Positions 6,953 through 29,800 are shown, counted from the stretch's first letter. The stretch: DNA of 32,000 bases from an uncultured bacterium (GCA_963704705.1 OY969931.1:780001-812000), one strand, 5' to 3'. Notes: generated by a model not told the origin, from the letters alone. Made by a program: numbers and translations.

Positions 6953-6964
6953 GATCCCGGGATC
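6953..6964. repeat. CCCGGG-centred perfect palindrome (gatcccgggatc)
   Basis: 12-nt perfect palindrome in an intergenic region. Same core as the repeat family at 14.8/18.7/21.5 kb. Confidence 0.5.
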
Positions 6965-7057: not shown

Positions 7058-7069
7058 ATGCCCGGGCAT
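7058..7069. repeat. CCCGGG-centred perfect palindrome (atgcccgggcat) followed by a degenerate subunit-like sequence
   Basis: 12-nt perfect palindrome. The downstream cattt..gtcaaattttcgctacgctcacctaccgg carries TTTGAC, GTAG and GGTAGGT words of the repeat family, in inverted orientation. Confidence 0.4.
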
Positions 7070-7187
7070 TTAAAACCTATAAAGTCAAATTTTCGCTACG
7101 CTCACCTACCGGCTCGCTCCAAAAGGCTTCGCTTGGGCTAAGCCCTGCGCTCCATACAGCTCCGTTCGCATTAGCTCACTTCGCTGT

Positions 7188-9874: not shown

Positions 9875-10753
9875 TTCATCAGGGCTGAAAATCCCTTCGT
9901 TTGTAATTATTTTATAAAAGAATTCTGAAGGAACGCGATCGTGAGAATATTTGGTTCGTTCGTATTCTATAGGCTTACTAATATGTGTACGTTTATGTTT
10001 GTGAATAAATATCTCTCCTCTTTTTGCTGATTTCCATAAACTGAATTTATCAGTTCCAAAAAACATATAAATCGGTGTTTTATGAAGCTGGAATTCCGAA
10101 ATCAAGCTTAATGCACCGGGATTCATAACAAACTCCTGAGTATCTTTTAAGGTAAGGGCTCCGTAAAAAACCATATCTATTTCATCCTGAACATGTGAAA
10201 GCATGTAAGCAGGAACTACGGTAAAAGGAATTTCAGCATTGTGAAGTCTTTCAATATTATCCTGGGTTTTTTTATAATCCTGCTCAGCGATAATGACATT
10301 AAATTTTTTCTTTTTATTTTTGTAATGTACCAAAACATCCTGAACAGTGTGGCTGTGATCGTGAATTAATATTGTTTTTCCTTCTACATCAATTTTTTCA
10401 GCATTTTTCAACAGTAAAGTTCTTTGTTTGCGAGAATATTTTAATGTTTCATTGATCTTTTTTAACGCGAGATCCTTCCAATTTTTATCATCTGAAATAT
10501 TACATACCTTACCTGTAATTTCCTTTTCCAGATAACCAAAATAGAACCTAAAAATTCCAAATTTTGGTTCTGTGTTTTTAACCATTTCAGCAAAGTCGTG
10601 ATACTGTTCGCAGAAATTTTCAAACTTTGAACCCTTAAAGGCTTTTATCGCATCAATTAAAGATAAAAGTACAAGTTCAGTGAGATCTCTTGTGCCCATA
10701 TCAACTTCAAGATCTCTCATTAAGTCCGAAAATATTTCAGTTTTGGATGTCAT
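9833..10753 (-). CDS. IF-2B (eIF-2B alpha/beta/delta-like) family protein; divergent ribose-1,5-bisphosphate / MTR-1-P isomerase-like
   Basis: 306 aa. By eye it aligns with archaeal R15P isomerase: GKTILIHDHSHTV..FNVIIAEQ..AEIPFTVVP..DMVFYGALTLKD..MNPGALSLI..IYMFFGTDKF..HDRVPSEFFYKIITNEGIF. Conserved TETRP-type residues are not obvious. Confidence 0.5.
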   Translation of the reverse strand: MTSKTEIFSDLMRDLEVDMGTRDLTELVLLSLIDAIKAFKGSKFENFCEQYHDFAEMVKNTEPKFGIFRFYFGYLEKEITGKVCNISDDKNWKDLALKKINETLKYSRKQRTLLLKNAEKIDVEGKTILIHDHSHTVQDVLVHYKNKKKKFNVIIAEQDYKKTQDNIERLHNAEIPFTVVPAYMLSHVQDEIDMVFYGALTLKDTQEFVMNPGALSLISEFQLHKTPIYMFFGTDKFSLWKSAKRGEIFIHKHKRTHISKPIEYERTKYSHDRVPSEFFYKIITNEGIFSPDELKEVFEKAYKENN

Positions 10754-10756
10754 ATT

Positions 10757-12055
10757 TTATAAAGTTGCAAAATACAAATAAGCACTGCAAACAAGTAAAA
10801 TTCCAATTGTTAACGGAAAGCTGAATTTTAAATAGTTAATAAAACTGATATGCACGCCGTTCTTCTTGGCTATATCAGCTGAAATAACATTCGCGGATGC
10901 TCCGATCAAAGTTCCATTTCCTCCAAGACAGGCTCCAAGCGAAAGCGCCCACCATAAAACAGTCGTATCGATTAACGGAAATTGAGCTTGTATACCTATT
11001 ATCACCGGAATCATAACTGTTACAAACGGAATATTATCAAGAACCATTGATACAATTCCTGAAACCCATAAAACAATTAAAGACAATAAAAATAAATTTG
11101 AAGTTGAATTCGCCACCATTTGGCTTAAATCTTCAAGTACACCTGTTTTTTCAATACCGCCAACCATCACAAATAAACCCGCAAAAAATAACAAAGTACT
11201 CCATTCAACTGATTTAAAAGATTCATGAATGCTTATCTTTTTGGTTGTTAAAATTGCCAAAATTATTGCTGCTGTAAATGCAATCACATAATTTGGAAGC
11301 TGCAAATAACTTTGCATCATAAAGCCAATAATTGTAACAGACAAAGCAATAACTACTTTTACAACAAAGTCTTTATGAATTGTTTTTTTAACAAATTTCA
11401 TTTTAACTTTTCTGATAATTACATTGGCAATAGTTAAATCAATAAGTTTATCAGAAATAGGTTTTATCGCCTTCCAGTTAACAAATATAAAAACACCAAG
11501 TGTAAACAAAATAACAGCTAAAATCGGCATCCACAGATTAGCAAGGAAATCCATAAAATTTAAATGGGCTGCACCACCGATAATAATATTCGGCGGATCA
11601 CCTATTAAAGTAAGCGCGCCACCTATATTCGAAAATATAATCTCGGCAAAAATGTAAGGTTTTGGATCTTTACCCATACCTTTAACCAATTCGATTGTTA
11701 AAGGAACAATTAAAATAACCGTGGTAACATTGTCTAAAAATGCTGAAAATACAGCTGTTAAAATTGAAAAGAACAAAAATATAGCGAGTGGATTGCCTTT
11801 TGTAAAAGCCGCTATTTTAACATTGAGCCATTCGAAAATTCCGCTTTTTGAAGCTATATTCACAAGTAGCATCATTGCCATTAAAAGCAAAATTGTTTCA
11901 AACTGAATTGCCTCTATTGCTTCTTCCGGGCTGAGAATTCGCAAAATCACCATTAACAAAGCTCCCAATAAAGCTGTAAGTGATTTATCAAATTTTTCAA
12001 TAACTATGAAAATGAATGCGAGTCCGAATATTCCGAGGGCGATGTATTCCAACAT
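10757..12055 (-). CDS. ArsB/NhaD-superfamily (CitMHS-like) ion/anion permease
   Basis: 432 aa with about 11-12 TM helices. Motifs FLDNVTTVILIVP and GDPPNIIIG / LDNIPFV are typical of this permease superfamily. Confidence 0.7.
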   Translation of the reverse strand: MLEYIALGIFGLAFIFIVIEKFDKSLTALLGALLMVILRILSPEEAIEAIQFETILLLMAMMLLVNIASKSGIFEWLNVKIAAFTKGNPLAIFLFFSILTAVFSAFLDNVTTVILIVPLTIELVKGMGKDPKPYIFAEIIFSNIGGALTLIGDPPNIIIGGAAHLNFMDFLANLWMPILAVILFTLGVFIFVNWKAIKPISDKLIDLTIANVIIRKVKMKFVKKTIHKDFVVKVVIALSVTIIGFMMQSYLQLPNYVIAFTAAIILAILTTKKISIHESFKSVEWSTLLFFAGLFVMVGGIEKTGVLEDLSQMVANSTSNLFLLSLIVLWVSGIVSMVLDNIPFVTVMIPVIIGIQAQFPLIDTTVLWWALSLGACLGGNGTLIGASANVISADIAKKNGVHISFINYLKFSFPLTIGILLVCSAYLYFATL

Positions 12056-14810: not shown

Positions 14811-14820
14811 AATCTACTCT

Positions 14821-14935
14821 ATCCCGGGAGGAGATTTGACCGTAGGCGATTTTTGGTGCGCGGTAGGTATACCAGGCCCGGGCCGGAATTAGACCCAGTA
14901 CTATTTTTGATGCGCAGTAAGATTACTTTCACGGG
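14821..14935 (+). repeat. REP/BIME-like composite repeat, copy A (2 subunits)
   Basis: Subunit 1 (14823-14873) is cccggg-agga-gatttgacc-gtag-GCGATTTTTGGTGCGCGGTAGGTATACC. Subunit 2 (14877-~14932) is cccgggccgg-aattagaccc..ctatttttgatgcgcagtaagattac. The 28-nt block is identical to those in copies B and C. Confidence 0.85.
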
Positions 14936-14951
14936 GATGAAATAATCAGCC

Positions 14952-14979
14952 TTGACTTTTTTCTAAAATATAGTACAAT
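14952..14979 (+). promoter_or_regulatory. putative sigma70 promoter of the GC-rich cassette
   Basis: TTGACT (14952-14957) - 16 nt - TACAAT (14974-14979), in AT-rich DNA just downstream of repeat copy A. Confidence 0.5.
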
Positions 14980-15078
14980 ATTATTCTTTGCTTAAATATC
15001 TATTTTGGATTGTTTGAGCAACGCTTATTTGAAAGAACAGCGAACAAAACCACAACACCCCAACGGGAGGAACAACAG

Positions 15079-15657
15079 ATGGGAAAACTCAGCATGTTTG
15101 TGATGATCGTCGTGATGGTCGCCAACGTCTTCGGATGCAGCAGCCGGAACGTGGGAGAACGTCAGCCCATGCCCGCGAGCACCATGGCGGTGCTCGATCG
15201 GATCGACGACTGCGACGACAGGTACTGGATCTACGCACGCAACCGCGATGACGACGCCTATGCCGCATGCCTCGAGAACCCGCCGGTGAGTCAATCTCAG
15301 TGTGCACTCGACTACGATGCAGCCAAGGAGCAGTCATGGAACGCCTACGAAGACTGCCTCATCAACCTGCCCATAGTCTCGCACGACTGCGTCCTGCAGC
15401 TCCAGCCCTTCAGCCAGGAGCAGGACACCGACGGCGACGGCGTCGAGGACTTCTGGGAGTACCAGATGGGCCTGAACCCCTGCGAGCCGTGTAGCTACGG
15501 CGGTACCCCCGGCGTGGACTGCGACGGTGATCTCGACTACGATCGGGATCCGCGCAACAACGCCGATGACACCAACCCGATCTGCGGGATGCTGTGGGAC
15601 GACGCGTGGCACAACGAGAACGCGGACTACGGCCTCAACGACGGCGGCTGCGTCTAG
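15079..15657 (+). CDS. foreign high-GC lipoprotein, Cys/Asp-rich with thrombospondin-type-3-like Ca-binding motifs
   Basis: Start ATG at 15079 is preceded by GGGAGG 8 nt upstream. Signal peptide plus lipobox (MVANVFGCSS). DTDGDGVEDFWEYQMGLNP and DCDGDLDYDRDPRNNADD motifs. Codon third positions are overwhelmingly G/C. The track ORF start at 15010 is probably an upstream extension. Confidence 0.7.
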   Translation: MGKLSMFVMIVVMVANVFGCSSRNVGERQPMPASTMAVLDRIDDCDDRYWIYARNRDDDAYAACLENPPVSQSQCALDYDAAKEQSWNAYEDCLINLPIVSHDCVLQLQPFSQEQDTDGDGVEDFWEYQMGLNPCEPCSYGGTPGVDCDGDLDYDRDPRNNADDTNPICGMLWDDAWHNENADYGLNDGGCV

Positions 15658-15686
15658 CAGCCGGTTCGCAACCTTTCAACAACCAG

Positions 15687-15719
15687 GGTGCGGCGCTTCG
15701 ACCTTCGAAGCGCCGCACC
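15687..15719 (+). terminator. GC-rich 15-bp perfect hairpin (terminator-like, no U-tract)
   Basis: ggtgcggcgcttcga-cct-tcgaagcgccgcacc lies 30 nt after the stop codon and marks the right edge of the high-GC island. Confidence 0.6.
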
Positions 15720-15757
15720 TCTTGCCTATATCTGCAAAATTGTTCTACACTATAAAT

Positions 15758-16336
15758 ATGATAAAAAAAATCATCTCAATTCTCGCATTATTTTGCGTTA
15801 TAGCAAGCCTCTCGGGCTGCAACTTATATAACCGCGATCATTTAAGCATTTATAATCCCGACCGCATCACAAAAAAATGGTTCGGCACTTATGTTGAGCC
15901 AGGCAACTCCCCTGTTGAACCTGAAAAATTCAAAGGTTATCACACAGGCGTTGATTTTGAGACTTTTGAAGATGAGCAGAATATCGATGTTCCTGTTTAT
16001 GCCATTTGCGACGGACCGATTGCACGAAAAGTTATTGCACAGGGCTATGGTGGTGTTGTCGCTCAATCATGCATCATCAACAATGAAAAAGTAACGGTTG
16101 TTTACGGCCATCTGGATATATTAAGCGTTACCAACGATGCTCAGGAAGTGCTTACATTCGGTGATTTTATTGGAAATTTGGGTGAAGGATTCACGAATCA
16201 AACAGATCACGAACGAAAACATCTTCATTTAAGTATTCACAAAGGTATTGAAGTAAATTTACTTGGCTATGTTCAAACACCCGAAGAATTATCAGAATGG
16301 ATTGATCCCTTGGATATTTTAACTTTAAAAATATGA
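15758..16336 (+). CDS. M23/LytM-family peptidase lipoprotein
   Basis: Real start is probably ATG at 15758 (MIKKIISILALFCVIASLSGC lipobox). Has YHTGVDFE and HLHLSIHKG metal-binding motifs. The track ORF from 15527 is an artefactual extension through high-GC DNA. Confidence 0.75.
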   Translation: MIKKIISILALFCVIASLSGCNLYNRDHLSIYNPDRITKKWFGTYVEPGNSPVEPEKFKGYHTGVDFETFEDEQNIDVPVYAICDGPIARKVIAQGYGGVVAQSCIINNEKVTVVYGHLDILSVTNDAQEVLTFGDFIGNLGEGFTNQTDHERKHLHLSIHKGIEVNLLGYVQTPEELSEWIDPLDILTLKI

Positions 16337-16716
16337 AAAATCATACAAATTTATGGCTGATTATTCTTGTTGTTATTCTTACCGCATTGATGACCACTGC
16401 AGCATTATTACTTTGGCAAAATCAACAAAACCCAACACCTTCTCAAAATGGCAGCTGGGTAACTTACGAAAGCCAAAACGGGTTCAGCTTCCAGCATCCA
16501 AAAGGTTATGGAGTTAATGAAACCATTGATCCGGAAGACCCTGAGAATACCATTGTTCATATTGTTAAATTAGATGAAAATGGTGAGTTCGAGCAGGTTC
16601 CGCCTTCATTACAAATCAATGTCTCGCCAAGTTCAGTTTCGTTTTCGCTTTGGGAAGGTGCTAAATGGGATGGATATCCTGAAATTATAGGAACTTTTAA
16701 ATTCGCAAGCAATTGA
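16333..16716 (+). CDS. hypothetical membrane-anchored protein
   Basis: 127 aa with a single N-terminal TM helix. Overlaps the M23 gene stop (ATGA). Confidence 0.5.
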   Translation: MKNHTNLWLIILVVILTALMTTAALLLWQNQQNPTPSQNGSWVTYESQNGFSFQHPKGYGVNETIDPEDPENTIVHIVKLDENGEFEQVPPSLQINVSPSSVSFSLWEGAKWDGYPEIIGTFKFASN

Positions 16717-17865
16717 TTAATCTATCAACAAATTAATGATTACGGAATTATGTTTGAATGATTCAACAATAGCTTCTTTAAACTTTCTTATGGCTTCAAT
16801 TGAATAAGGTTTACCTGTTCTTTTTGTGTTTCCCCAACTATTTGCAATTTGTTTTAAAGTTGCACTGGGTTCTTCAAAAAAATAACGCATTGTTATATAA
16901 AAAGCTAAATCTCGATCAAGACTTCTATATCCCACCTGTGAAAAATCAAAATTATAAATTTGTTCCGTTACTTCCTGCCGAAGCTTTCTTTGAAAATCAT
17001 CTTCTTCAATTTTTTCAAATTCAGGACAATCTAAACCAACAACATTGTGAAAACTTTTTCTTGAATCATCACCGTCAACAGGTGCATCTAAATGCAAAAT
17101 TCCTCTCCCTGAACTTTCTGATCTCGAAACCATATTAATAGGATAATGGAGAGTATTTAAATTTTTATAAATATAACCTGATACATAAGATCTTATCCAA
17201 TTATAAGCTGAGGTTGAAAATCTATATCCAAACCTTGGATTGTATTTTATTACTGCTTTTCTTAAACCCAAAATGCCTTCGTTGTGTAAATCTTCATAAG
17301 AAAAAGTACCATTTATCACATATTCTCCATAAAGCTGCATAATAACTTTTCGTATAAGCATCTCATTTTCCTGAATTATACTATTAATAGATTCAGTGTC
17401 GCCTCTTCTCACTTTTTCCCAGATTTCATTTTCTTCATCAGTCAAATTCAGATTTTTTTTTGAGGAAGTTAAGACATTTGTAACCGTATTAAAATTACAA
17501 CCGAATATTTCGTTGGTAAAAGTGTTTGCCATACCAGGTTTTGGATATCTTTGTTTTTTTGATCGAACAAAATCCTTAAGTTTTCCCTTAAGTCCGGAAT
17601 CAACCTGATATTCATAAAAATCCAAAACAAACCTTACTTTTGCATCTGCTTCAGCAATGATATCTTCATCATCTTCATCAACCAGACCTTCCTGAACAAA
17701 ACTAATTGCATCACTAACAAGTTCTCTTAAAAACTGCAGATCCTCAGCATATTTTAATTCAGCGGAAAGCGCTGATTCCGGCATATCTTCTGCACCGCTT
17801 TCAGTTAGCTTAGGCTGCTGAATTTCATAATTTAGATTAACCATATTAGTGTCCGAATTTTGCAT
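16717..17865 (-). CDS. divergent sigma-70 family RNA polymerase sigma factor with long acidic N-terminal region
   Basis: Region 2 aligns with RpoD: DLHNEGILGLRKAVIKYNPRFGYRFSTSAYNWIRSYV..HYPINM versus [43 protein letters not shown]. The region 3/4-like C-terminus (LDAPVDGDDS.., ATLKQIANSWG..SIEAIRKFKEAI) carries an insertion. Confidence 0.75.
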   Translation of the reverse strand: MQNSDTNMVNLNYEIQQPKLTESGAEDMPESALSAELKYAEDLQFLRELVSDAISFVQEGLVDEDDEDIIAEADAKVRFVLDFYEYQVDSGLKGKLKDFVRSKKQRYPKPGMANTFTNEIFGCNFNTVTNVLTSSKKNLNLTDEENEIWEKVRRGDTESINSIIQENEMLIRKVIMQLYGEYVINGTFSYEDLHNEGILGLRKAVIKYNPRFGYRFSTSAYNWIRSYVSGYIYKNLNTLHYPINMVSRSESSGRGILHLDAPVDGDDSRKSFHNVVGLDCPEFEKIEEDDFQRKLRQEVTEQIYNFDFSQVGYRSLDRDLAFYITMRYFFEEPSATLKQIANSWGNTKRTGKPYSIEAIRKFKEAIVESFKHNSVIINLLID

Positions 17866-17881
17866 ATAAAAGGTGCGCAGG

Positions 17882-18631
17882 TCAAAAAGTATCGAGATCT
17901 TCTTTTAAAAGACCCATCTGATTATTCCGCTTAAGTTTTAACATAAATAATGAAAAATAAATATTCTCGTCTAGTCCTTCCATTAATAATTTTTCAATTA
18001 GTTCATCCGGATTCAAAGGCTGTGATGTTTGTTCATCTAAAATTTCATCTCCAATTGTTTCGCAAATTCTTAACTGGAGTGATTCTGTGGGCTCATCAAG
18101 AGATTCAGCATATTCTTGCTTTGTTTTATTATAGTACTCAATATCTTCATCATCTAGATATTCCATTAATTCTGGAGGTAGGGATCTTCCTTCAATACAT
18201 AATTGTATAAGAATATTTCTTCTAAAAGTATGTTTAAATTTTTCAAGAATAAATTCATTCAAATCCAATTCCCCTGTTTCAACATTTCCGCCAACATACA
18301 TATATATATTTAACAAGAAAAACGCTTTAACCCTAATAATAGTATTAATTCTAATAAAAGAATCGAAATCATCATCAAATTCCGTTATCCGCTTCCATAA
18401 ATCAAAAAAATCTTCATTTGAAAGTTGAGATTCTTCAAAAATATCAAGATCCGGCAAAGCCATTTCCAAAATATCAGCTTGAGGCATTAATTTTAGTTGA
18501 TTTATATCAAAACTTAAAAAATATTTTTCAATATCTGACTTTAGCTGTTCATTATCACCTGCAATTATTTCAGCATATATTGTAATAAGACTGTTTACCG
18601 GTGTTTCAATATTGGGCTCTTCAGTATTCAT
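17882..18631 (-). CDS. hypothetical acidic helical protein, upstream gene of the sigma-factor operon
   Basis: 249-aa ORF ending 16 nt upstream of the sigma gene on the same strand. No family recognised. Confidence 0.5.
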   Translation of the reverse strand: MNTEEPNIETPVNSLITIYAEIIAGDNEQLKSDIEKYFLSFDINQLKLMPQADILEMALPDLDIFEESQLSNEDFFDLWKRITEFDDDFDSFIRINTIIRVKAFFLLNIYMYVGGNVETGELDLNEFILEKFKHTFRRNILIQLCIEGRSLPPELMEYLDDEDIEYYNKTKQEYAESLDEPTESLQLRICETIGDEILDEQTSQPLNPDELIEKLLMEGLDENIYFSLFMLKLKRNNQMGLLKEDLDTF

Positions 18632-18708
18632 AATATTTATTTAAATCGGCTATTTATTTTAACTTGATATTCTATTTTGTCAAGATTCCGAAAGTTTACT
18701 ATTGCCAA

Positions 18709-18863
18709 TCCTCCCGGGAGGAGATTTGACTATAGGCGATTTTTGGTGCGCGGTAGGTATACCCGGCCCGGGCCGGCGTTTGACCTCGGTTCATTTTAGT
18801 TGCGCTGTATGCGAAAGTGGTCACGTGACCACTTTTTTTAGAAAAATTTAATCTAAATTTAAT
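18709..18863 (+). repeat. REP/BIME-like composite repeat, copy B (2 subunits + terminator + conserved tail)
   Basis: tcctcccgggaggag palindrome, then atttgac..GCGATTTTTGGTGCGCGGTAGGTATACC, then the ccggcccgggccgg palindrome, then gtttgacctcggttcattttagttgcgctgtatgcg, a hairpin and tagaaaaatttaatctaaatttaat. 18736-18863 matches 21485-21613 apart from 1 indel and 1 substitution. Confidence 0.9.
18814..18839 (+). terminator. intrinsic-terminator-like hairpin inside repeat B
   Basis: aaagtggtc-acgt-gaccacttt followed by a T-run (7 Ts in total from the end of the stem). The core gtggtcacgtgaccac is a perfect 16-nt palindrome, so it could equally be a protein-binding site. Confidence 0.5.
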
Positions 18864-18899
18864 GATTGGCAGGTATTATTTGGCCATAATATTTAATTA

Positions 18900-18928
18900 T
18901 TGACTTTGTAGCTACATTTTTATATAAT
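18900..18928 (+). promoter_or_regulatory. sigma70 promoter with inverted-repeat operator, hicA cassette
   Basis: TTGACT (18900-18905) - 17 nt - TATAAT (18923-18928). The inverted repeat ctacatt/aatgtag brackets the -10. Confidence 0.6.
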
Positions 18929-18954
18929 GTAGTTACGGTTGCACGCCAATTTTT

Positions 18955-19194
18955 ATGACCAAAATCGAAAAAACCGTACAAAACCTGCTAAATAATCCCA
19001 AGTCTCTTAAATTCAAGGAAATTCAAAAAGTATTAACATTTTTAGGATTTGAATTGATCAAAGCAAAGGGAAGCCACAAAAAATTCAAGCATCAAAATCT
19101 TAATCACGACCTGATAATCCCGGTCCACAACAACGATTGCAAAACCTTTTACAAAATTCTCGCCTCAAAAACCATAAAAAAGCTTATATCATGA
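18955..19194 (+). CDS. hicA: HicA-family mRNA interferase toxin
   Basis: 79 aa. LTFLGFELIKAKGSHKKFKH...IIPVHNNDCK matches the HicA pattern (GF....GSH..f.h......v.vP.H). Confidence 0.8.
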   Translation: MTKIEKTVQNLLNNPKSLKFKEIQKVLTFLGFELIKAKGSHKKFKHQNLNHDLIIPVHNNDCKTFYKILASKTIKKLIS

Positions 19195-19511
19195 AAAACA
19201 TCATTCATTACATAACAATCAATAATAAAAAGTATACATATACTTTAAAGCCCGGAAGCGGCAAAAAAACCCTTGTTGAATGCAAAGAGGCCAATATAAA
19301 TCAGAAATTTTTAAATGAAGATATCCCTGAACTGTTAAATGATCTGCCAAATTTGATTTTGGCGGAAAAAAAATATAAAAAGCAGCAGTCTGAGCTGATA
19401 AGGTTCAGGGTGAGCGCGGATGATAAAAAACAAATCGAAAAAATCGCGGTTAAAAAAGGCTACAATTCGGTTTCGGGCTATTTGAGGGATTTGGCTTTGG
19501 GGGATGTTTAA
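19191..19511 (+). CDS. cognate antitoxin with C-terminal ribbon-helix-helix (CopG-like) domain
   Basis: ATG at 19191 overlaps the hicA stop (ATGA). The C-terminus IRFRVSADDKKQIEKIAVKKGYNSVSGYLRDLAL is a typical RHH. The track start at 19137 is probably too far upstream. Confidence 0.65.
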   Translation: MKNIIHYITINNKKYTYTLKPGSGKKTLVECKEANINQKFLNEDIPELLNDLPNLILAEKKYKKQQSELIRFRVSADDKKQIEKIAVKKGYNSVSGYLRDLALGDV

Positions 19512-19573
19512 AAATTGACAAATTAGACAAAAAGAGCTAAATTAATTTCTTGATTTACTCTTAACATTCCACC

Positions 19574-20553
19574 ATGAATACTGAACCTAAAGACAAAATC
19601 GCAGAAGAATTAAACGCACAACCGGAATTAGCAGACAAAGCAAATGATACAAGTGCCCAAGAATATAATATGGGTGTCTCAGATGAAGTATCTGAGGTTC
19701 TTGAACAAACTGAATTAATCGAAAAAGCAAAAACAGAAGTAACAAAGGCAGTTAAACAAGCAGGAGAAGTTTTGTTACAACTTTTAGGTAAGGTGGATTT
19801 TGAATTTAAAGATGATGGAAGCCATGTTACAAAGGCTGATACAAGAGTGCAGGAATTAATCCGAACTCATTTAAGCGAAGCTTTCCCTGATTTTTCTTTT
19901 ATGGGTGAAGAAGGTGAAGATTCCGGAGTACAAAAGTTTGATTTTGAATGGGTGGTTGATCCATTGGACGGGACTATAAATTTTGGAAATAATATTGATT
20001 TCTTTGCTATATCAGTTGGCTTGAAGTATAAAAACACTCCGGTTTTGGGGGTTGTTTATGTCCCTGCTCAAAAAGAATTAATTACAGGTGATTTAACTGG
20101 TAAAAGCAAATGCAATGATATAGAAATCCAGGAATCAACTGAAAAAAATCATAAGAAAAAACCTTTTGCAGATGGTGTTTGGAATAAAAATACAGTTGTT
20201 TATTCAGAAGAGGCTGCAAAATTAAAAGGTAAGCCTCGAACAATGGGTACAGCAGTTCATACATTAATGGATGTTGCCAAAGGCGGATTCGGTCATGCAG
20301 TTTTATCAAATGTATTTATTTGGAATATTTTAGCTGCAATGCCAATTTTAAAAGGCGCAGGTGCTGATTTGTTAATTTGGCAGGATGGTGAGTGGAAAAA
20401 ATATAATAAATTGACCCTAGTTTATTTAATAAAGAAAACTCTTTTACTGTTTTAGCTGCAAGCAATACTAATCTAGACTATTGCAAAGCTAATATTTCAA
20501 TTGATAAATCACGTGAATTTGATTTTCAGACGAAAAACCACCTTTTGACATAA
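19574..20553 (+). pseudogene. inositol-monophosphatase-family gene (copy/domain 1), 3' end frameshifted
   Basis: IMPase motifs are present: KADTRVQELI, FMGEEG, WVVDPLDGTINF. The reading frame breaks near 20410-20413. The family-like C-terminus (DPSLFNKENSFTVLAASNTNL...) continues in another frame to the stop at 20551-20553. Confidence 0.7.
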
Positions 20554-21426
20554 GCACTACCGATAAAAAAGAAGCTGAATATGATCCTGCAGTACTTGAT
20601 CGTTTTCAATCGTTATTTGCAAAAATAGCAGAGATTACACGAAACGTTATTAATACAGGTAAAAAAGAAATTACTTTAAAAGAGGATGACTCAGAACAAA
20701 CAAACGAAGACGTTAGAATCGAAGAAGAACTCAAAGAATTATTAATGACTGAATTCCCGGATTTTAATTTTATGGGAGAAGAAACACCAAATATATTAAC
20801 TGGCAGCAGATACGGTTTTATTGTTGACCCTATCGACGGCACAACAAATTACTCAAACAATTTACCGTCTTTTGCAACCATAGTTTGTCTGGACTTTTGA
20901 CAGCAAACCTATTGGCGGATTGATTTACTTCCCTAAGCTTGATATGGCGGTTTTCAACAATGCAGATTCGACTTTTATAAGCAGATTTGATCATAATAAT
21001 GAAGCACAAATAGAAAAAGTTGATGTAAAAGATGACTTATTTGAAAATGAAGATGAAAATATTCCATTTGGATTTAGTTCACACGCCAGAAGCAAGATCA
21101 AATATAATAAAGAAGTATCAAAAGTATTTAATCAGCCACGAACATTCGGTTCAGCTGCTTCAGTTATCTCATTTACAGGTACGGGCAGTTTAAGAGGATT
21201 TGTTTTGGCAGGAGCAAAATTATATGATTTTGCAGGAGGTGTGCCTTTAATTGAAAACGGAGGTGGTAAAGTATATATTCTTGATGAGGAAGACGCTTGT
21301 TGGAAAGAATATGATGAAATGTTTGAAAAGCTAATGCAGGAACCTGAAGTTAAAAGATATATAATTGGAGGTGGCCCAAATACAGTTAAAAAATTGATGG
21401 AAAATATGCATCCTGAGGTGAAATAG
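20523..21426 (+). pseudogene. inositol-monophosphatase-family gene (copy/domain 2), no start codon, internal frameshift
   Basis: Frame 20523-20900 encodes ..EELKELLMTEFPDFNFMGEE..FIVDPIDGTTNYSNNLPSFATIVCL but has no start codon before the motif region. It shifts near 20884-20900 into ORF 20920-21426 (..KPIGGLIYFP...). An A-run at 20533-20537 could link it to copy 1. Confidence 0.65.
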
Positions 21427-21455
21427 GGGTAATCCTGAGGTGAAATAGGGGTAAT
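21412..21455 (+). repeat. perfect 22-nt tandem duplication (cctgaggtgaaataggggtaat x2)
   Basis: 21412-21433 equals 21434-21455, and the next 5 nt (cctgg) start a third unit. It spans the stop codon of ORF 20920-21426 and abuts repeat copy C. Confidence 0.9.
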
Positions 21456-21613
21456 CCTGGCCCGGGCCGGCATTTGAACTTTGAGCGATTTTTGGTGCGC
21501 GGTAGGTATACCCGGCCCGGGCCCGGCGTTTGACCTCGGTTCATTTTAGTTGCGCTGTATGCGAAAGTGGTCACGTGACCACTTTTTTTAGAAAAATTTA
21601 ATCAAAATTTAAT
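21456..21613 (+). repeat. REP/BIME-like composite repeat, copy C (2 subunits + terminator + conserved tail)
   Basis: Same architecture as copy B: ggcccgggccgg palindrome, catttgaac..GCGATTTTTGGTGCGCGGTAGGTATACC, ccggcccgggcccgg, then the second subunit, a hairpin at 21564-21589 and a conserved tail. Confidence 0.9.
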
Positions 21614-21651: not shown

Positions 21652-21681
21652 TTGACAATGTAATTACAAGTTTGCTATACT
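21652..21681 (+). promoter_or_regulatory. sigma70 promoter with operator-like repeats, relB/yafQ-like cassette
   Basis: TTGACA (21652-21657) - 18 nt - TATACT (21676-21681). Direct repeats caatgta x2 and the palindrome tgtaattaca overlap the spacer. Confidence 0.55.
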
Positions 21682-22740: not shown

Positions 22741-23586
22741 TTATTTCAATTTGTTTTTAGCTTGCTGTCCCGATAAAGGATTACTTTTTGTAATCACGCT
22801 TCGCCCTATTTCTTTTTCTGTATTTTTTCTGGCTTCGCCTGCGATATTTCCACCCCGTCTTGCTACTTTTTTATTTTCGGGTATGCCTTCGGGTTTCTCG
22901 TTTTTTGAGATTTCTGTTGTAACTTTTTCTCCAAGCATAGTGAAAATCAGCTCAAGGTCAGTCATGTTGTCACGCAAATTCGCTTTTGATTTGGTTGGAA
23001 TATTCTTGAATTTCTTGTATTGAGCCGGCGTCATGCCAAAAGTTGCTTTGGAAATTTCAGCGGTTAATATTCCATAATCTTTGTAATTGGATATACCTCT
23101 TTGTTTCCATTCATCTGTAAGATCTTGCCTGATCACAATGCCGCGAAGCCTTTTATCAATCCAGTCTTTGGGATAGCCTTTTTGCTCATAAAGCATTTTC
23201 ATTCTTTCCTGAGCCAACTCCGGATTTTCAATTTCTTCCATTCTTTCATAACCCACTTTTGCCAGCCATCTTTTGAAGGGTTCAGCTTTTGGTGAAGGAA
23301 TAGATTGAATAATACGAAGAAGTCCCTCCGTATTCGCGCAATCTGTAATATACTTTTTCCCGTCAGTAGCTTCCAATTTCAGTCGGTGACAAAATGTCAC
23401 CACCTCACTTCCTTCTTCCCTAAGCCTTTGTGAAAGCTTATTCCAATATTTTCTGGCTGTTTGATAATCCGGATTATCTGTTAAAGCAGAACAAACGTCC
23501 ACTACAGAAAAATACCACTCCTTATTATGCCAGATTCTTCGAATCTGTTTAGATTGAAAAAGAACGAGTTTATTTGAATGATCCAT
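22741..23586 (-). CDS. BRO-N domain protein (DinD / phage antirepressor-like)
   Basis: 281 aa. The N-terminus FQSKQIRRIWHNKEWYFSVVDVCSAL..ARKYW fits the BRO-N pattern, and the overall layout resembles DNA-damage-inducible protein D. Confidence 0.65.
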   Translation of the reverse strand: MDHSNKLVLFQSKQIRRIWHNKEWYFSVVDVCSALTDNPDYQTARKYWNKLSQRLREEGSEVVTFCHRLKLEATDGKKYITDCANTEGLLRIIQSIPSPKAEPFKRWLAKVGYERMEEIENPELAQERMKMLYEQKGYPKDWIDKRLRGIVIRQDLTDEWKQRGISNYKDYGILTAEISKATFGMTPAQYKKFKNIPTKSKANLRDNMTDLELIFTMLGEKVTTEISKNEKPEGIPENKKVARRGGNIAGEARKNTEKEIGRSVITKSNPLSGQQAKNKLK

Positions 23587-26897: not shown

Positions 26898-29800
26898 TTA
26901 CTCAATCGGCCATTTAGGTATTAATTCATCAATTTCTTTCATAACTCTTATTGTCTCCCTTAAAGATACAACAATTTTCATATAATGAACTAAATCGTCA
27001 ACCGACAAACACCTATCTGCTTTTTTTCTATCTTTTAACCACTTTTCCAAAACCTGATAGCCTCCTATCATAAATTCCCAAACTTCAAGCTCAATACCTT
27101 CAAAATATTGACCTGAATTTACATAAACACGTTTTTCAGTTGGTTCGTACTCTACTTTTTCAATCTTCCAATCCTCAATATTTTCTGGTTTTTTACCTCC
27201 CGTTATAACATTCCACTTTGAATTATCATCAAAAATAGTACTAGAATCATCAAATGGATTTTCACCAAGAAGATGCAAATTAACAAGTTCCTTACCCTTT
27301 TTTACTAAATTTTTAAATAATTTCTTATCTTTAATTAATGGAATACGTGGAAAATCAATTTTTAATTGTTCAGCATAACGATTCCTGTAAGTTGGGCAAT
27401 GTAAAATAGCATAAATATAATAAAAAATATCTTCTGATCCAAAAGTTTTAGATAAATCGCCAGGTCCATTTCCAATGTATTTCATATAAAGTCTTTTAGA
27501 AAATTCACTTATAAATTTGTTATTTAAATTTGACTTAAATTCTTTTTCATTAAGAATGTTTGATTGAATATTTTCTATTTCAGGATATATATAAATAGGA
27601 AAAATATAATTTTGATCAGAAATAATATGTATATCAGCTAAAGATTTAACTAGAAAAGAATGATGGAAACTATCTCCAGGTATAAGTCTAGTGGTAACCA
27701 ATGCAAAATTTAATTTCAACAAATTACGCATTGTTTTATAACCCGGCGTGCCGACAAATCCTCTAGTTTTACCACTATACCAAATTTTTCTAATATCAAA
27801 AGGTCTGTATGAAATATCAAAAATTAAATTATCGTCATCTCTATGCTCTAATGTATCATTTTTTGCGTTATCAATCTTCCAGTCTCTACTATCTTTTTCT
27901 AAATTGTATTTTTTCTTTAATTCATCTTCAGTTAGTTCTCGAAAATCATTTAGTGTGTTTGTTAATTCTTTTTTATCAAAATGAATACAAATACCATCTC
28001 GTTCTGTTTTTACACCGCTTCCATATTCGTGAAAAATATCTTGGACACCCCAAAAATCACCATACTCAACAATTTTGTCACTAGAATCATCAGCATTGGG
28101 GACAAAAAAGTTCAGCTTTCCCAAAAATTCACTCCATTTTGTTGATAAAAATGCAGAATTAAAATTTTTATAGTCAATTTCTATCCAATTTAACTTATTA
28201 AATCTATTATCCAGCCATTCATATTTATATTTTTTCAACCCCCATAAATCAAAATAACATAAATTACATGGTTCATTATTATCATTTTTTTTAATAAAAA
28301 AATTAATTGAAACTCCGGTTTGAATATTAAATACATTCTCATCCGTGCTCCCATCAGTGCATACTTCACCTTTTCGGCTATTCCCATGTAAATTTAAGAT
28401 ATAAATTTCATTAAATTCATTTAATAATTCTCCCCTCATTCTTCTGTGAGTAATTCCATCAATAAATGAATTAGATGTAATCATAGCAAATATTCCTTGT
28501 CCCGATTTGTGTAATTTCCACTGCGCAAACCTAATAAATTTAATGTAATCATCATCAATATTAATTTTCTTTTCATTTAAATTCTTTTTGTAATCTTTTA
28601 ATAAATCTAAAATCCAAGGCTGTTTATTCATCATACCAAAATTACTATAAGGAGGATTACCTATTATTGCTAAAACTTCTTTATTGTTTTTTATATCTCT
28701 TGCAGATTCACTTTCTTTAGATATTGATTCAAAACCAAATAAATCTATTTTGGGATTTTCTGGATTATCTAAACTGTTTGCTAAAAATACTTGAAAGCGA
28801 TCATTTGTAGGATCTTCATCTTCGTAAGTTTTGTTAAAATCAAACCCAAGCCGCTCAATTTCAAGAGCAAGTTTTAAATGAGCAATGGCATAAGGTGCAA
28901 CTAATAATTCGAAACCATAAAAATGTTTTAATATGTGCTTTAAAACTTTATCTGTAAACTTCTTTTTAACAATATCTTCACCTAATGCACCATTTTTCTT
29001 TTTAATTCTTTCATGAACCTGTTGAATAGCTGACATTAAAAAAGTGCCTGTTCCGGCTGCAGGATCAAGTATATTAACTTCTTCATTTGCCAATCCATCT
29101 TCTTTATTAAATTTTGTTTTCTAATAAATAATCCACACTCCTAACAATTAGATCCACTATAGGCTTTGGGGTATAATAAACCCCCCTCGCTTCCCTTTCT
29201 TTTGGATCATATTCCTTCAAAAACGGCTCATAAAACTGTATTACAGGATCTTCGTTTACTTTATGGTCTACTAATTTATGCCGAATTTTATCAAGTTTTT
29301 AATTATTTAATTGATCTACAAGAGCTTCTGTAGCCTGATGAATAGAAGGAAATATTGACGAAACTCTTTTAACAAGATCATATAAATCCTTAAGAATAGG
29401 CACATTCTTTGGTAAAAAATCTATTGCTGTTGTAAGGGTGAAAGAGGAATCGGGGTGTTTTTCAGTATATTCTAGTGACGCTAAGAATAAAGAATACGCT
29501 AATGTTTCCGCAACCATATTAGCAAATTGGTGTTCATCAATATTTTGTATTAATGTTTCGGAAAAAGTTTTCTTTAATCTGTGCAATTCTGTGAATCTTC
29601 ATCTTCTTTATTAAAATTTTCTTCAACTTGTTGACTTAAAAGTTTAGTTTTTCTTGCAAGTGCCAATGCTAATTGTTTCCGAGTTTTTGCATCATAAGCT
29701 TGACCCAATAAAAATTTAACCAATAAAAGATCCAAATTTTTCTCAGAACCCTCGGTATAATCTCTAATATCAAAAGTTAATTCTTCAATCTTTTTTGCAT

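Follow-up and report, generated by a model that had tools for sequence, protein, structure and literature searches.

Genomic Context and Organization of the Repeat Clusters

We analyzed a stretch of 32,000 nucleotides (GCA_963704705.1, OY969931.1:780001-812000; hereafter the window, from whose first letter positions are counted) that forms part of a 1,374,545-bp contig of an uncultured bacterium, the source population of which was sampled in ERR11571143 and ERZ25039495. Homologs of one protein encoded in the window carry the source labels Candidatus Gracilibacteria or Patescibacteria, and the host lineage is named here from these annotations only. The window contains a 16S rRNA gene and a tRNA-Leu gene and, from ~14.8 kb onwards, constitutes a variable island of defense and toxin–antitoxin (TA) genes. 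The gene order of the island begins with a foreign lipoprotein gene of 62% GC, an M23 peptidase gene, and, on the opposite strand, a sigma-like gene and a gene for a 249-aa protein; it continues with hicA and an RHH antitoxin gene, an inositol-monophosphatase-like gene, and relB with a yafQ-like toxin gene, and then with genes encoding a Bro-N protein, a Cas4-like DUF2779 protein, a DrmA-like ATPase, and a Type ISP restriction enzyme. Three composite repeats, A (14821-14935), B (18709-18863), and C (21456-21613), are interspersed among these genes, all of them inside the window. As a preliminary description of this DNA had reported, the copies lie in direct orientation on the plus strand and are GC-rich elements in an AT-rich genome (51–58% GC in the arrays vs. 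35% in the window).

We compared the window with L004, a contig of a closely related strain that is 98% identical to it over 13 kb, with loci of a sister species (including L018 and L022) that have ~82–89% nucleotide identity to the window and a common gene order up to position 14813, and with the more distant relatives L026, L028, and L031. Contigs from an independent short-read assembly of the same sample start or stop in the block shared by the copies and confirm copy A from both sides; the junction of copy A with the high-GC lipoprotein gene is also confirmed by an independent short-read contig (L034).

Each copy is composed of two units (table 1). A degenerate pattern for the unit, TTTGAC-N8-ATTTT-N4-GCGC-N-GTA with at most three mismatches, recovers six units, two per copy, against an expectation of 0.04. 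The units are arranged head-to-tail on the same strand in A, B, C, and the L004 array with a period of 54–55 nt; the two tandem subunits of the preliminary description thus stand, whereas their period of ~52 nt does not. The unit cores are 56–95% alike, the arrays escape detection by TRF, and the core consensus over all units is aTTtGAc....g...ATTTTtg.tGCGC.GTA.G..tAc, each core leading into a hairpin whose sequence varies. The first units of A, B, and C contain the 28-nt block GCGATTTTTGGTGCGCGGTAGGTATACC without any change, as had been noted before, and its 19-mer occurs three times in the window where no occurrence is expected by chance. The hexamer CCCGGG occurs 10 times in the window versus 1.8 expected, and 8 of these 10 sit in intergenic palindromes. 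The palindromes of the three copies are centered on CCCGGG, in agreement with the preliminary description, but they are not uniformly perfect, given that the palindromes of A are imperfect and the second one of C has a 1-nt bulge. Copies B and C, with 98% identity to each other over 129 nt in the window, do terminate in a hairpin and T-tract as described, namely the perfect 22-nt palindrome AAAGTGGTCACGTGACCACTTT and a T7 run. The order of the units is mosaic: the first unit of A is common with B, the second unit of A matches the leftmost L004 unit, and C begins with the palindrome type that stands second in B. Copy A palindrome 1 begins 7 nt past the stop codon of a gene for a 473-aa protease/SLH protein.

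We read the array as palindromic modules of ~30 nt, one every 54–55 nt, with GC-rich linkers of ~24 nt (GGCGATTTTTGGTGCGCGGTA) between them. The basic module we read as an imperfect palindrome of roughly 30 nt with AT-rich outer arms (GGTCAAAT...ATTTGACC), a variable inner GC stem of 3–5 bp, and the invariant CCCGGG. ATTTGAC is assigned as the outer right arm of the palindrome because one of the L004 hairpins is a perfect 32-nt palindrome, GGTCAAATCTCCTCCCGGGAGGAGATTTGACC; the GGTATAC that precedes other hairpins looks like a decayed left arm, as the left arm often is. In the array units, a GTAG, GTAA, or GTAT lies 6 nt before the hairpin stem, rather than immediately 5′ of the palindromes as originally described.

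Table 1. Coordinates of the repeat units, hairpins, and adjoining features (window positions unless a locus is named)
Feature	Position	Strand	Remarks
Copy A palindrome 1	14817-14834	+	tatCCCGGGagg; degenerate left arm
Copy A unit core 1	14834-14872	+	Type U-I; contains the invariant 28-nt block
Copy A palindrome 2	14871-14885	+	CCAGGCCCGGGCCGG; CCCGGG, 1-nt bulge
Copy A unit core 2	14888-14926	+	Like the leftmost unit of the longer L004 array
Copy A hairpin	14927-14942	+	TTTCA-CGGGGA-TGAAA
Promoter-like site	14952-14979	+	Before the high-GC lipoprotein gene; neighbor, outside the repeat
Copy B palindrome 1	18709-18722	+	TCCTCCCGGGAGGA; in L004 a perfect 32-nt palindrome, GGTCAAATCTCCTCCCGGGAGGAGATTTGACC
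Copy B unit core 1	18724-18762	+	U-I
Copy B palindrome 2	18763-18776	+	CCGGCCCGGGCCGG
Copy B unit core 2	18779-18815	+	U-II
Copy B terminator-like hairpin	18814-18842	+	AAAGTGGTCACGTGACCACTTT and T-run; hairpin-less sequence instead in L004
AT-rich leader motif	18838-18863	+	TTAGAAAAATTTAATCTAAATTTAAT; part of the TA-module upstream region, outside the GC-rich repeat
Promoter-like site after copy B	18900-18928		
Tandem duplication, perfect, 22 nt x 2.3	21410-21459	+	ATCCTGAGGTGAAATAGGGGTA; over the stop codon of the upstream ORF (open reading frame) and the left edge of copy C
Copy C palindrome 1	21456-21471	+	CCTGGCCCGGGCCGGC
Copy C unit core 1	21472-21511	+	U-I, 1-nt insertion
Copy C palindrome 2	21512-21526	+	1-nt bulge; one C more than in L004, which may be a homopolymer error
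Copy C unit core 2	21529-21565	+	U-II, identical to that of B
Copy C terminator-like hairpin	21564-21592	+	With T-run
AT-rich leader motif	21588-21613	+	Before relB; conserved in L022 and L026
Promoter-like site after copy C	21652-21681		
Singleton hairpin	6953-6964	none	GATCCCGGGATC; between tRNA-Leu and the next gene
Singleton hairpin	7058-7069	none	ATGCCCGGGCAT; downstream of tRNA-Leu; type recurs at L022 5557-5568 (sister species)
AT-rich motif, sites in other loci	L022 4998-5023, 5648-5673, 6324-6349; L026 1412-1437		
hicA-antitoxin 3′ boundaries	19511; L020 9122; L022 6318; L026 6321; L028 10318; L031 10318		

Predicted Hairpins around a Fixed Center

The hairpins that follow the unit cores are CCGGCCCGGGCCGG, CGATCCCGGGATCG, CCTCCCGGGAGG, the pair TTTCA-CGGGGA-TGAAA/TCCCA-GGGGA-TGGGA, and GTGGTCACGTGACCAC. 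The members of the pair are the last hairpin of copy A and its L004 counterpart, in which the stem is preserved by compensatory changes, and the center of GTGGTCACGTGACCAC is one compensatory pair away from CCCGGG. The array hairpins and the 32-nt palindrome of L004 are predicted to fold, with predicted loops of 4 nt. Hairpins of this kind also occur outside the arrays. The type of the singleton GATCCCGGGATC is present in the L004 array and in the sister species. In the latter, the tRNA-Leu trailer has the hairpin CTGGCCCGGGCCAG with a T-run, the hairpins ATGCCCGGGCAT, CGATCCCGGGATCG, and AATCCCTCCCGGGAGGGATT followed by T7 lie between a relB-toxin remnant and hicA, and the hairpin TCCCTCCCGGGAGGGA lies upstream of relB. 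The GTAG-like tag is absent from the singletons at 6953 and 7058 and from the L022 hairpins. Six of the seven hairpin sites considered are located directly downstream of a co-directional gene or tRNA.

An alignment on the core of 14 intergenic CCCGGG sites from the window, the related strain, and the sister species reveals that four stem pairs beyond the core stay complementary, with three to five pair types each. Paired cells make up 86.7% of this alignment, compared with 63.7% in shuffles and 34–66% in slid controls, and double-sided changes are found in 25 cells versus 10.1 in shuffles. The conserved property is the capacity for hairpin formation around a fixed center, not primary sequence. 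The structural covariation that the preliminary description had proposed as a check is accordingly present at the local hairpins but not for a long-range RNA fold of the whole composite, which is supported by no compensatory pairs; the fold z-score is only about −2.

Turnover between Strains and Species

The L004 array upstream of hicA has at least four units (it is cut by the contig end) versus two in the window. In L004, copies B and C are ~83–91% identical and B lacks the terminal hairpin; their 98% identity in the window suggests gene conversion between the copies in the window strain. The positions upstream of hicA and relB in the sister species (L022) are occupied by other CCCGGG hairpins with unrelated linkers. 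An nhmmer search with a profile of the 39-nt core detects no unit cores in the sister species or the more distant loci, and the hicA and relB sites of L026, L028, and L031 have no hairpins. The arrays turn over fast between species and are homogenized within the genome, and unit number and order differ between strains. Small repeat families usually show just this combination, fast turnover between species and near-identity of the copies in one genome.

Two breakpoints lie at the edge of an array: the synteny between species stops at 14813, before copy A, and L004 and the window diverge at 18709, the left edge of copy B. L020 departs from the window at a third breakpoint, 19510, which coincides with the antitoxin stop codon rather than with a repeat. 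Because the copies are alike within the genome and reshuffled between strains, the junctions that they occupy are recombination-prone and coincide with changes in gene content; the repeat family is also the reason that short-read assemblies of the population break at the arrays. The preliminary description regarded the repeat as a marker of the 5′ boundary of accessory cassettes. The association with junctions of variable content holds at 14813 and 18709, but the position relative to the genes is better described, for six of the seven hairpin sites, as the 3′ end of the upstream gene.

Distribution of the Repeat Family

The exact 19-mer of the invariant block has no match in 185,579 reference genomes and a single match, by chance, in the JGI metagenome contigs, where it lies in a high-GC contig. 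The degenerate unit has no match in viral contigs and 12 single matches in the reference genomes, in unrelated taxa and at approximately the number expected by chance; in the viral contigs, the AT-rich leader described below also has no match and the outer-arm palindrome has one chance match. The core profile recovers only the known units of the source population over all compared loci. A six-frame translation of the arrays, used as a protein query for spurious ORFs over other copies, has no match, and the ORFs lying over the repeats are not in the protein collection. The repeats have no Rfam match at the gathering score and only chance-level matches up to E 10; a tRNA scan is likewise negative. 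So far, the unit-core family is known only from the source population and the CCCGGG hairpins from this species and the sister species. The repeat family is real and, by the searches made, undescribed, although its general kind is already known and fairly ordinary; the preliminary description of an undescribed GC-rich modular repeat of the REP/BIME (repetitive extragenic palindromic/bacterial interspersed mosaic element) kind is upheld.

Comparison with Known Repeats and Proposed Role

REP elements are GC-rich palindromes of 20–40 bp with a stem of about 6–13 bp and a loop of 2–4 nt; they are dispersed over the genome in high copy number and lie downstream of ORFs, and tandem REP clusters with flanking DNA have also been described (Di Nocera et al. 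2013, PMC3733652). The palindromes of the window family (12–32 nt, CCCGGG-centered, with predicted 4-nt loops) are of comparable dimensions, and the 14 aligned sites include subfamilies with alternative complementary stem residues, as in REPs. Further REP- and BIME-like properties are the location just downstream of genes and between co-directional genes, the reiteration of hairpins with conserved spacers, the near-identity within a genome, and the lineage specificity. Unlike in REPs and BIMEs, the CCCGGG center is invariant and the units are head-to-tail rather than alternating or inverted. In BIMEs, regularly spaced REPs alternate in orientation and are accompanied by conserved motifs outside the REPs. 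In the arrays, we observe a regular spacing of 54–55 nt and conserved linkers. The linkers all point in one direction, which argues against a BIME-type alternation; the symmetry of the hairpins conceals any orientation of their own.

BOX elements of Streptococcus pneumoniae have the organization boxA-boxB(n)-boxC, are dispersed in more than 100 copies, have partly complementary ends, and have no transposase of their own. The composites resemble them in being modular intergenic repeats with a variable number of ~45–55-nt tandem modules, distinct ends, and hairpins, near promoters and terminators; unlike BOX, they show no sequence relationship to that family and their end hairpins are unrelated. 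The GC-rich hairpins directly after genes are also reminiscent of intrinsic (Rho-independent) terminators. Canonical terminators are found in the last hairpin of B and C and, in the sister species, in AATCCCTCCCGGGAGGGATT with T7 and in CTGGCCCGGGCCAG with its T-run after tRNA-Leu. Most array hairpins, however, have no T-run, and unlike intrinsic terminators they have a common center and conserved linkers and are repeated as a family.

Based on these comparisons, the reading we favor, to which we assign roughly even chances, is that the composites consist of clustered small hairpins that belong to a new, lineage-specific family like REP, BIME, or BOX elements. Their role is probably that of 3′-end hairpins or terminators, combined with a recombination-prone homology. 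Since the clusters lie directly past the upstream stop codon, the transcript of the upstream gene would include them at its 3′ end. We posit that the hairpins could block 3′ exonucleases and stabilize the upstream transcript, and that the array hairpins together with the last hairpin, which would provide a U-tract in B and C, could stop read-through and shield the next promoter. Given that six of the seven sites lie just past genes and that the terminal hairpins with T-runs are canonical terminators, an RNA 3′-end stabilizer or terminator is, judging from sequence, the most likely role. As a side effect at the DNA level, homology between the repeats may promote conversion and rearrangement, which is supported by the strain comparison; new copies could originate by gene conversion or recombination, or through an unseen single-strand DNA enzyme.

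Several observations weigh against this proposal. The composite copies known are the three in the 32-kb window and those of one related strain, and the searches of reference genomes, metagenome contigs, and viral contigs described above yielded chance matches only. Copy B is flanked by divergent promoters in the window strain and has no upstream transcript to terminate. The T-run is restricted to the last hairpin of B and C, copy A being without one, and a role for the hairpins only would leave the strict identity of the 28-nt linker unaccounted for.

A rival reading is that the copies are functionless local duplications, left behind as debris when a hypervariable island was rearranged again and again. 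In its favor, a span of 7 kb includes every composite copy known, the public collections searched did not contain the family, and the region is a strain-variable defense and TA island. Stem complementarity, however, is kept through many compensatory changes across two species, and the same hairpin types occur at the unlinked sites of the tRNA-Leu trailer and the sister-species TA island; we consider this explanation unlikely.

The preliminary description had seen in the units the grammar of REPs recognized by a RAYT (REP-associated tyrosine transposase, a Y1 HUH transposase). On this reading, the repeats would be true REP or REPIN elements, mobilized by a RAYT encoded elsewhere in the genome. 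The GC-rich, short-loop hairpins with alternative complementary stems are those expected of REP subfamilies, a GTAG, GTAA, or GTAT lies at a fixed distance from the hairpin in all array units, and the position downstream of ORFs and the identity of copies within the genome would fit. In REPIN/RAYT systems, a single-copy RAYT gene is flanked by the repeats. In most REPs, the GTAG or CGTC tag is conserved, unpaired, and 0–2 nt from the stem, and the mobilization of REPINs requires inverted REP pairs, head-to-tail dimers being rare in known families (PMC3733652). In contrast, the tag is 6 nt from the stem in the arrays and missing on the singletons, and all unit cores of A, B, C, and L004 are on the same strand. 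No transposase or recombinase domain is encoded in the window, and the gene tables of the compared related loci include no Y1_Tnp or integrase; a partner RAYT or recombinase, which the preliminary description had proposed to look for, is therefore missing from the window and the compared loci. The RAYT grammar is not supported for this family, and we regard its mobilization by such an enzyme as distinctly unlikely.

A dimeric DNA-binding protein (a regulator or a nucleoid or ParB/Noc-like protein) could alternatively occupy the palindromes as an array of sites five helical turns apart. The invariant CCCGGG center, the recurrence of the outer arms GTCAAAT/ATTTGAC, the regular 54-nt spacing, and the invariant 28-nt linker are what such a protein might require. 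Yet the stems between the center and the outer arms vary freely but stay complementary, which points to structure rather than to base-specific contacts; in addition, the left outer arm is mostly decayed, and the sites turn over between sister species while the neighboring promoters are conserved. We judge this explanation improbable. Similarly improbable, in our view, is that the CCCGGG hairpins are substrates of a single-strand DNA enzyme (HUH/Y1 or a hairpin-recognizing recombinase) encoded elsewhere, the clusters and the AT-rich leader serving as joints for the exchange of TA and defense modules. If true, this would be the first REP-RAYT-like system in the Patescibacteria radiation.

Less probable still is a site-specific cassette system, integron-like or other, that uses the repeats for recombination and thereby captures TA and accessory genes. 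Direct repeats at gene-content junctions, breakpoints at array edges, the arm-spacer-arm layout of a tyrosine-recombinase core site in the 32-nt perfect palindrome of L004, and the sharp bounding of the hicAB module in six genomes would be in accord with such a system, and integron attC sites share with the hairpins a conserved structure with variable sequence and a location between gene cassettes that include TA modules. Unlike attC sites, the 12–32-nt perfect palindromes have no R/L boxes or extrahelical bases: reading the sequence by eye, we find neither the attC-type R″/L″-L′/R′ organization nor a GTTRRRY motif. No integrase or recombinase is encoded in the window or the related loci, genes lie on either strand between A and B, L020 departs from the window at a point outside the repeats, and cassette junctions of the sister species can be hairpin-free (L022 6318-6350).

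In type III TA loci of the ToxIN type, near-identical tandem RNA repeats are followed by a terminator and the gene of a ToxN/CptN/TenpN-type toxin that has no promoter of its own, and the tandem short units, terminator, and hicA or relB-yafQ of the window recall this layout. Nevertheless, a small RNA, an idea also raised in the preliminary description, or a type III-like RNA antitoxin is highly improbable. There is no promoter-like site within the arrays or ahead of them, Rfam yields no match, and covariation is confined to the local hairpins (with a fold z-score of only about −2). The units are diverged (56–82% alike), the HicA and YafQ-like toxins belong to complete type II systems with protein antitoxins and strong promoters of their own, copy A precedes a non-TA lipoprotein gene, and conservation of the arrays does not extend to the sister species.

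Small hairpin repeats between genes are familiar from Proteobacteria, but few descriptions exist for the reduced genomes of uncultivated Patescibacteria-type bacteria. With its invariant center and co-varying stems, such a family would provide a handle on the formation of transcript ends in such bacteria and, given its turnover between species and homogenization within the genome, on the reshuffling of defense and TA islands; it would also serve as a strain-typing marker. Its practical importance is modest unless a dedicated mobilizing enzyme or a genome-wide role emerges.

Leader Motif, Promoters, and Toxin–Antitoxin Modules

In contrast to the GC-rich arrays to their left, the regions from the AT-rich leader to the start codon are conserved between species. 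In the sister species, the final ~30 nt of copies B and C (TTTTTTTAGAAAAATTTAATCNAAATTTAAT) are again found ahead of hicA, relB, and higB, and a shorter form precedes hicA and relB in the more distant relatives. Next to hicA and relB, leader and promoter are 91–100% identical between the sister-species locus L022 and the window. The treatment of B and C each as a single repeat in the preliminary description therefore applies to the GC-rich part but not to the right ~30 nt, which are a separate leader that is conserved before TA modules elsewhere. Near-consensus promoter-like sites matching at 10–11 of 12 positions follow all three copies, as had been reported; those of the TA modules after B (HicA and RHH antitoxin) and C (RelB and YafQ-like toxin) match at 11 of 12.

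The motif of the leader, TTTTAGAAAAATTTAATCAAAATTTAATAATT(G/A)TTTG.TAT, precedes non-homologous TA modules (hicA, relB, and higB) in several species. It has an internal duplication of 11 nt, and the relB versions include an extended −10-like TGnTATAAT. The TA modules may have this motif in common as a promoter or leader, or it may act as a cassette joint.

The same DUF4342-Smr-HGSNAT block and the DUF2779 gene also enclose hicAB in a more distant genome. With synteny kept across genera and a conserved leader of its own, the hicAB module is a resident and not a recent arrival; together with the location of the strain breakpoint 19510 off the repeat, this speaks against the earlier view of hicA as a cassette with a repeat-marked boundary. 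The 3′ boundary of the hicA-antitoxin module is sharp, with six different neighbors past the antitoxin stop codon in six genomes or strains (table 1). Directly past this stop codon in the window, AAATTGAC is repeated 2.4 times (19512-19531) and overlaps a promoter-like site (19515-19543). In the more distant relative L031, hicAB adjoins a diversity-generating retroelement with a reverse transcriptase and a bAvd gene (10447-11748).

Neighboring Genes and Other Features

The 22-nt duplication to the left of copy C is also present in L004. We had considered it as a target-site duplication, which is ruled out because it is tandem and bounded by ATCCTG repeats; slippage between these repeats accounts for it. 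Two further candidates were rejected. The arrays and the tRNA-Leu trailer have the words CGGTAGGT, GCTGTATG, and ATTTGAC in common, but a local alignment exceeds shuffles only at the hairpin itself, and a derivation of the arrays from the trailer was dropped. The CACGTG and CCCGGG palindromes are reminiscent of parS and Noc-binding sites, but only their 6-nt centers match the consensus of these sites, and this likeness was discarded. The cysteine desulfurase-like gene of the sister species has an internal, perfect 16-nt CCCGGG palindrome (TCCGTCCCGGGACGGA, L018 1310-1325), the window version of which (6104) is imperfect. The ~110 nt directly after tRNA-Leu form a GC-rich trailer (7080-7187 on the minus strand of the window; L018 2430-2545) that is 97% identical between the two species, whereas its flanks are 84–89% identical. 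This trailer matches no Rfam family, its predicted fold is unremarkable (z = −0.6), and it may be an unrecognized RNA or a processed trailer. The 16S rRNA gene is flanked on both sides by 28-nt inverted repeats (577-604 and 2285-2312) that are 93% complementary and probably form an rRNA processing stem.

The foreign segment with 62% GC that encodes the lipoprotein (~15040-15730) is inserted directly after copy A and terminates in a 33-nt GC hairpin (15687-15719). At the equivalent site after the protease gene, the sister species has a different high-GC gene on the other strand (L018 11542-12051). The inositol-monophosphatase-like gene (19574-21426) is represented by ORFs of 293 aa and 168 aa in the window and by a single 617-aa ORF in L004, and the Type ISP restriction gene (26898-29093) encodes 731 aa in the window versus 1088 aa in the short-read contig L005. 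These split or shortened ORFs indicate that the window carries frameshifts, either pseudogenes or indel errors of the long-read assembly. The Bro-N domain protein (22741-23586, minus strand) matches the PADLOC candidate defense family PDC-S13 (E = 1e-119), and its gene, together with those of the Cas4-like DUF2779 protein, the DrmA-like ATPase, and the Type ISP enzyme, marks the region of 22–29 kb as a defense island.

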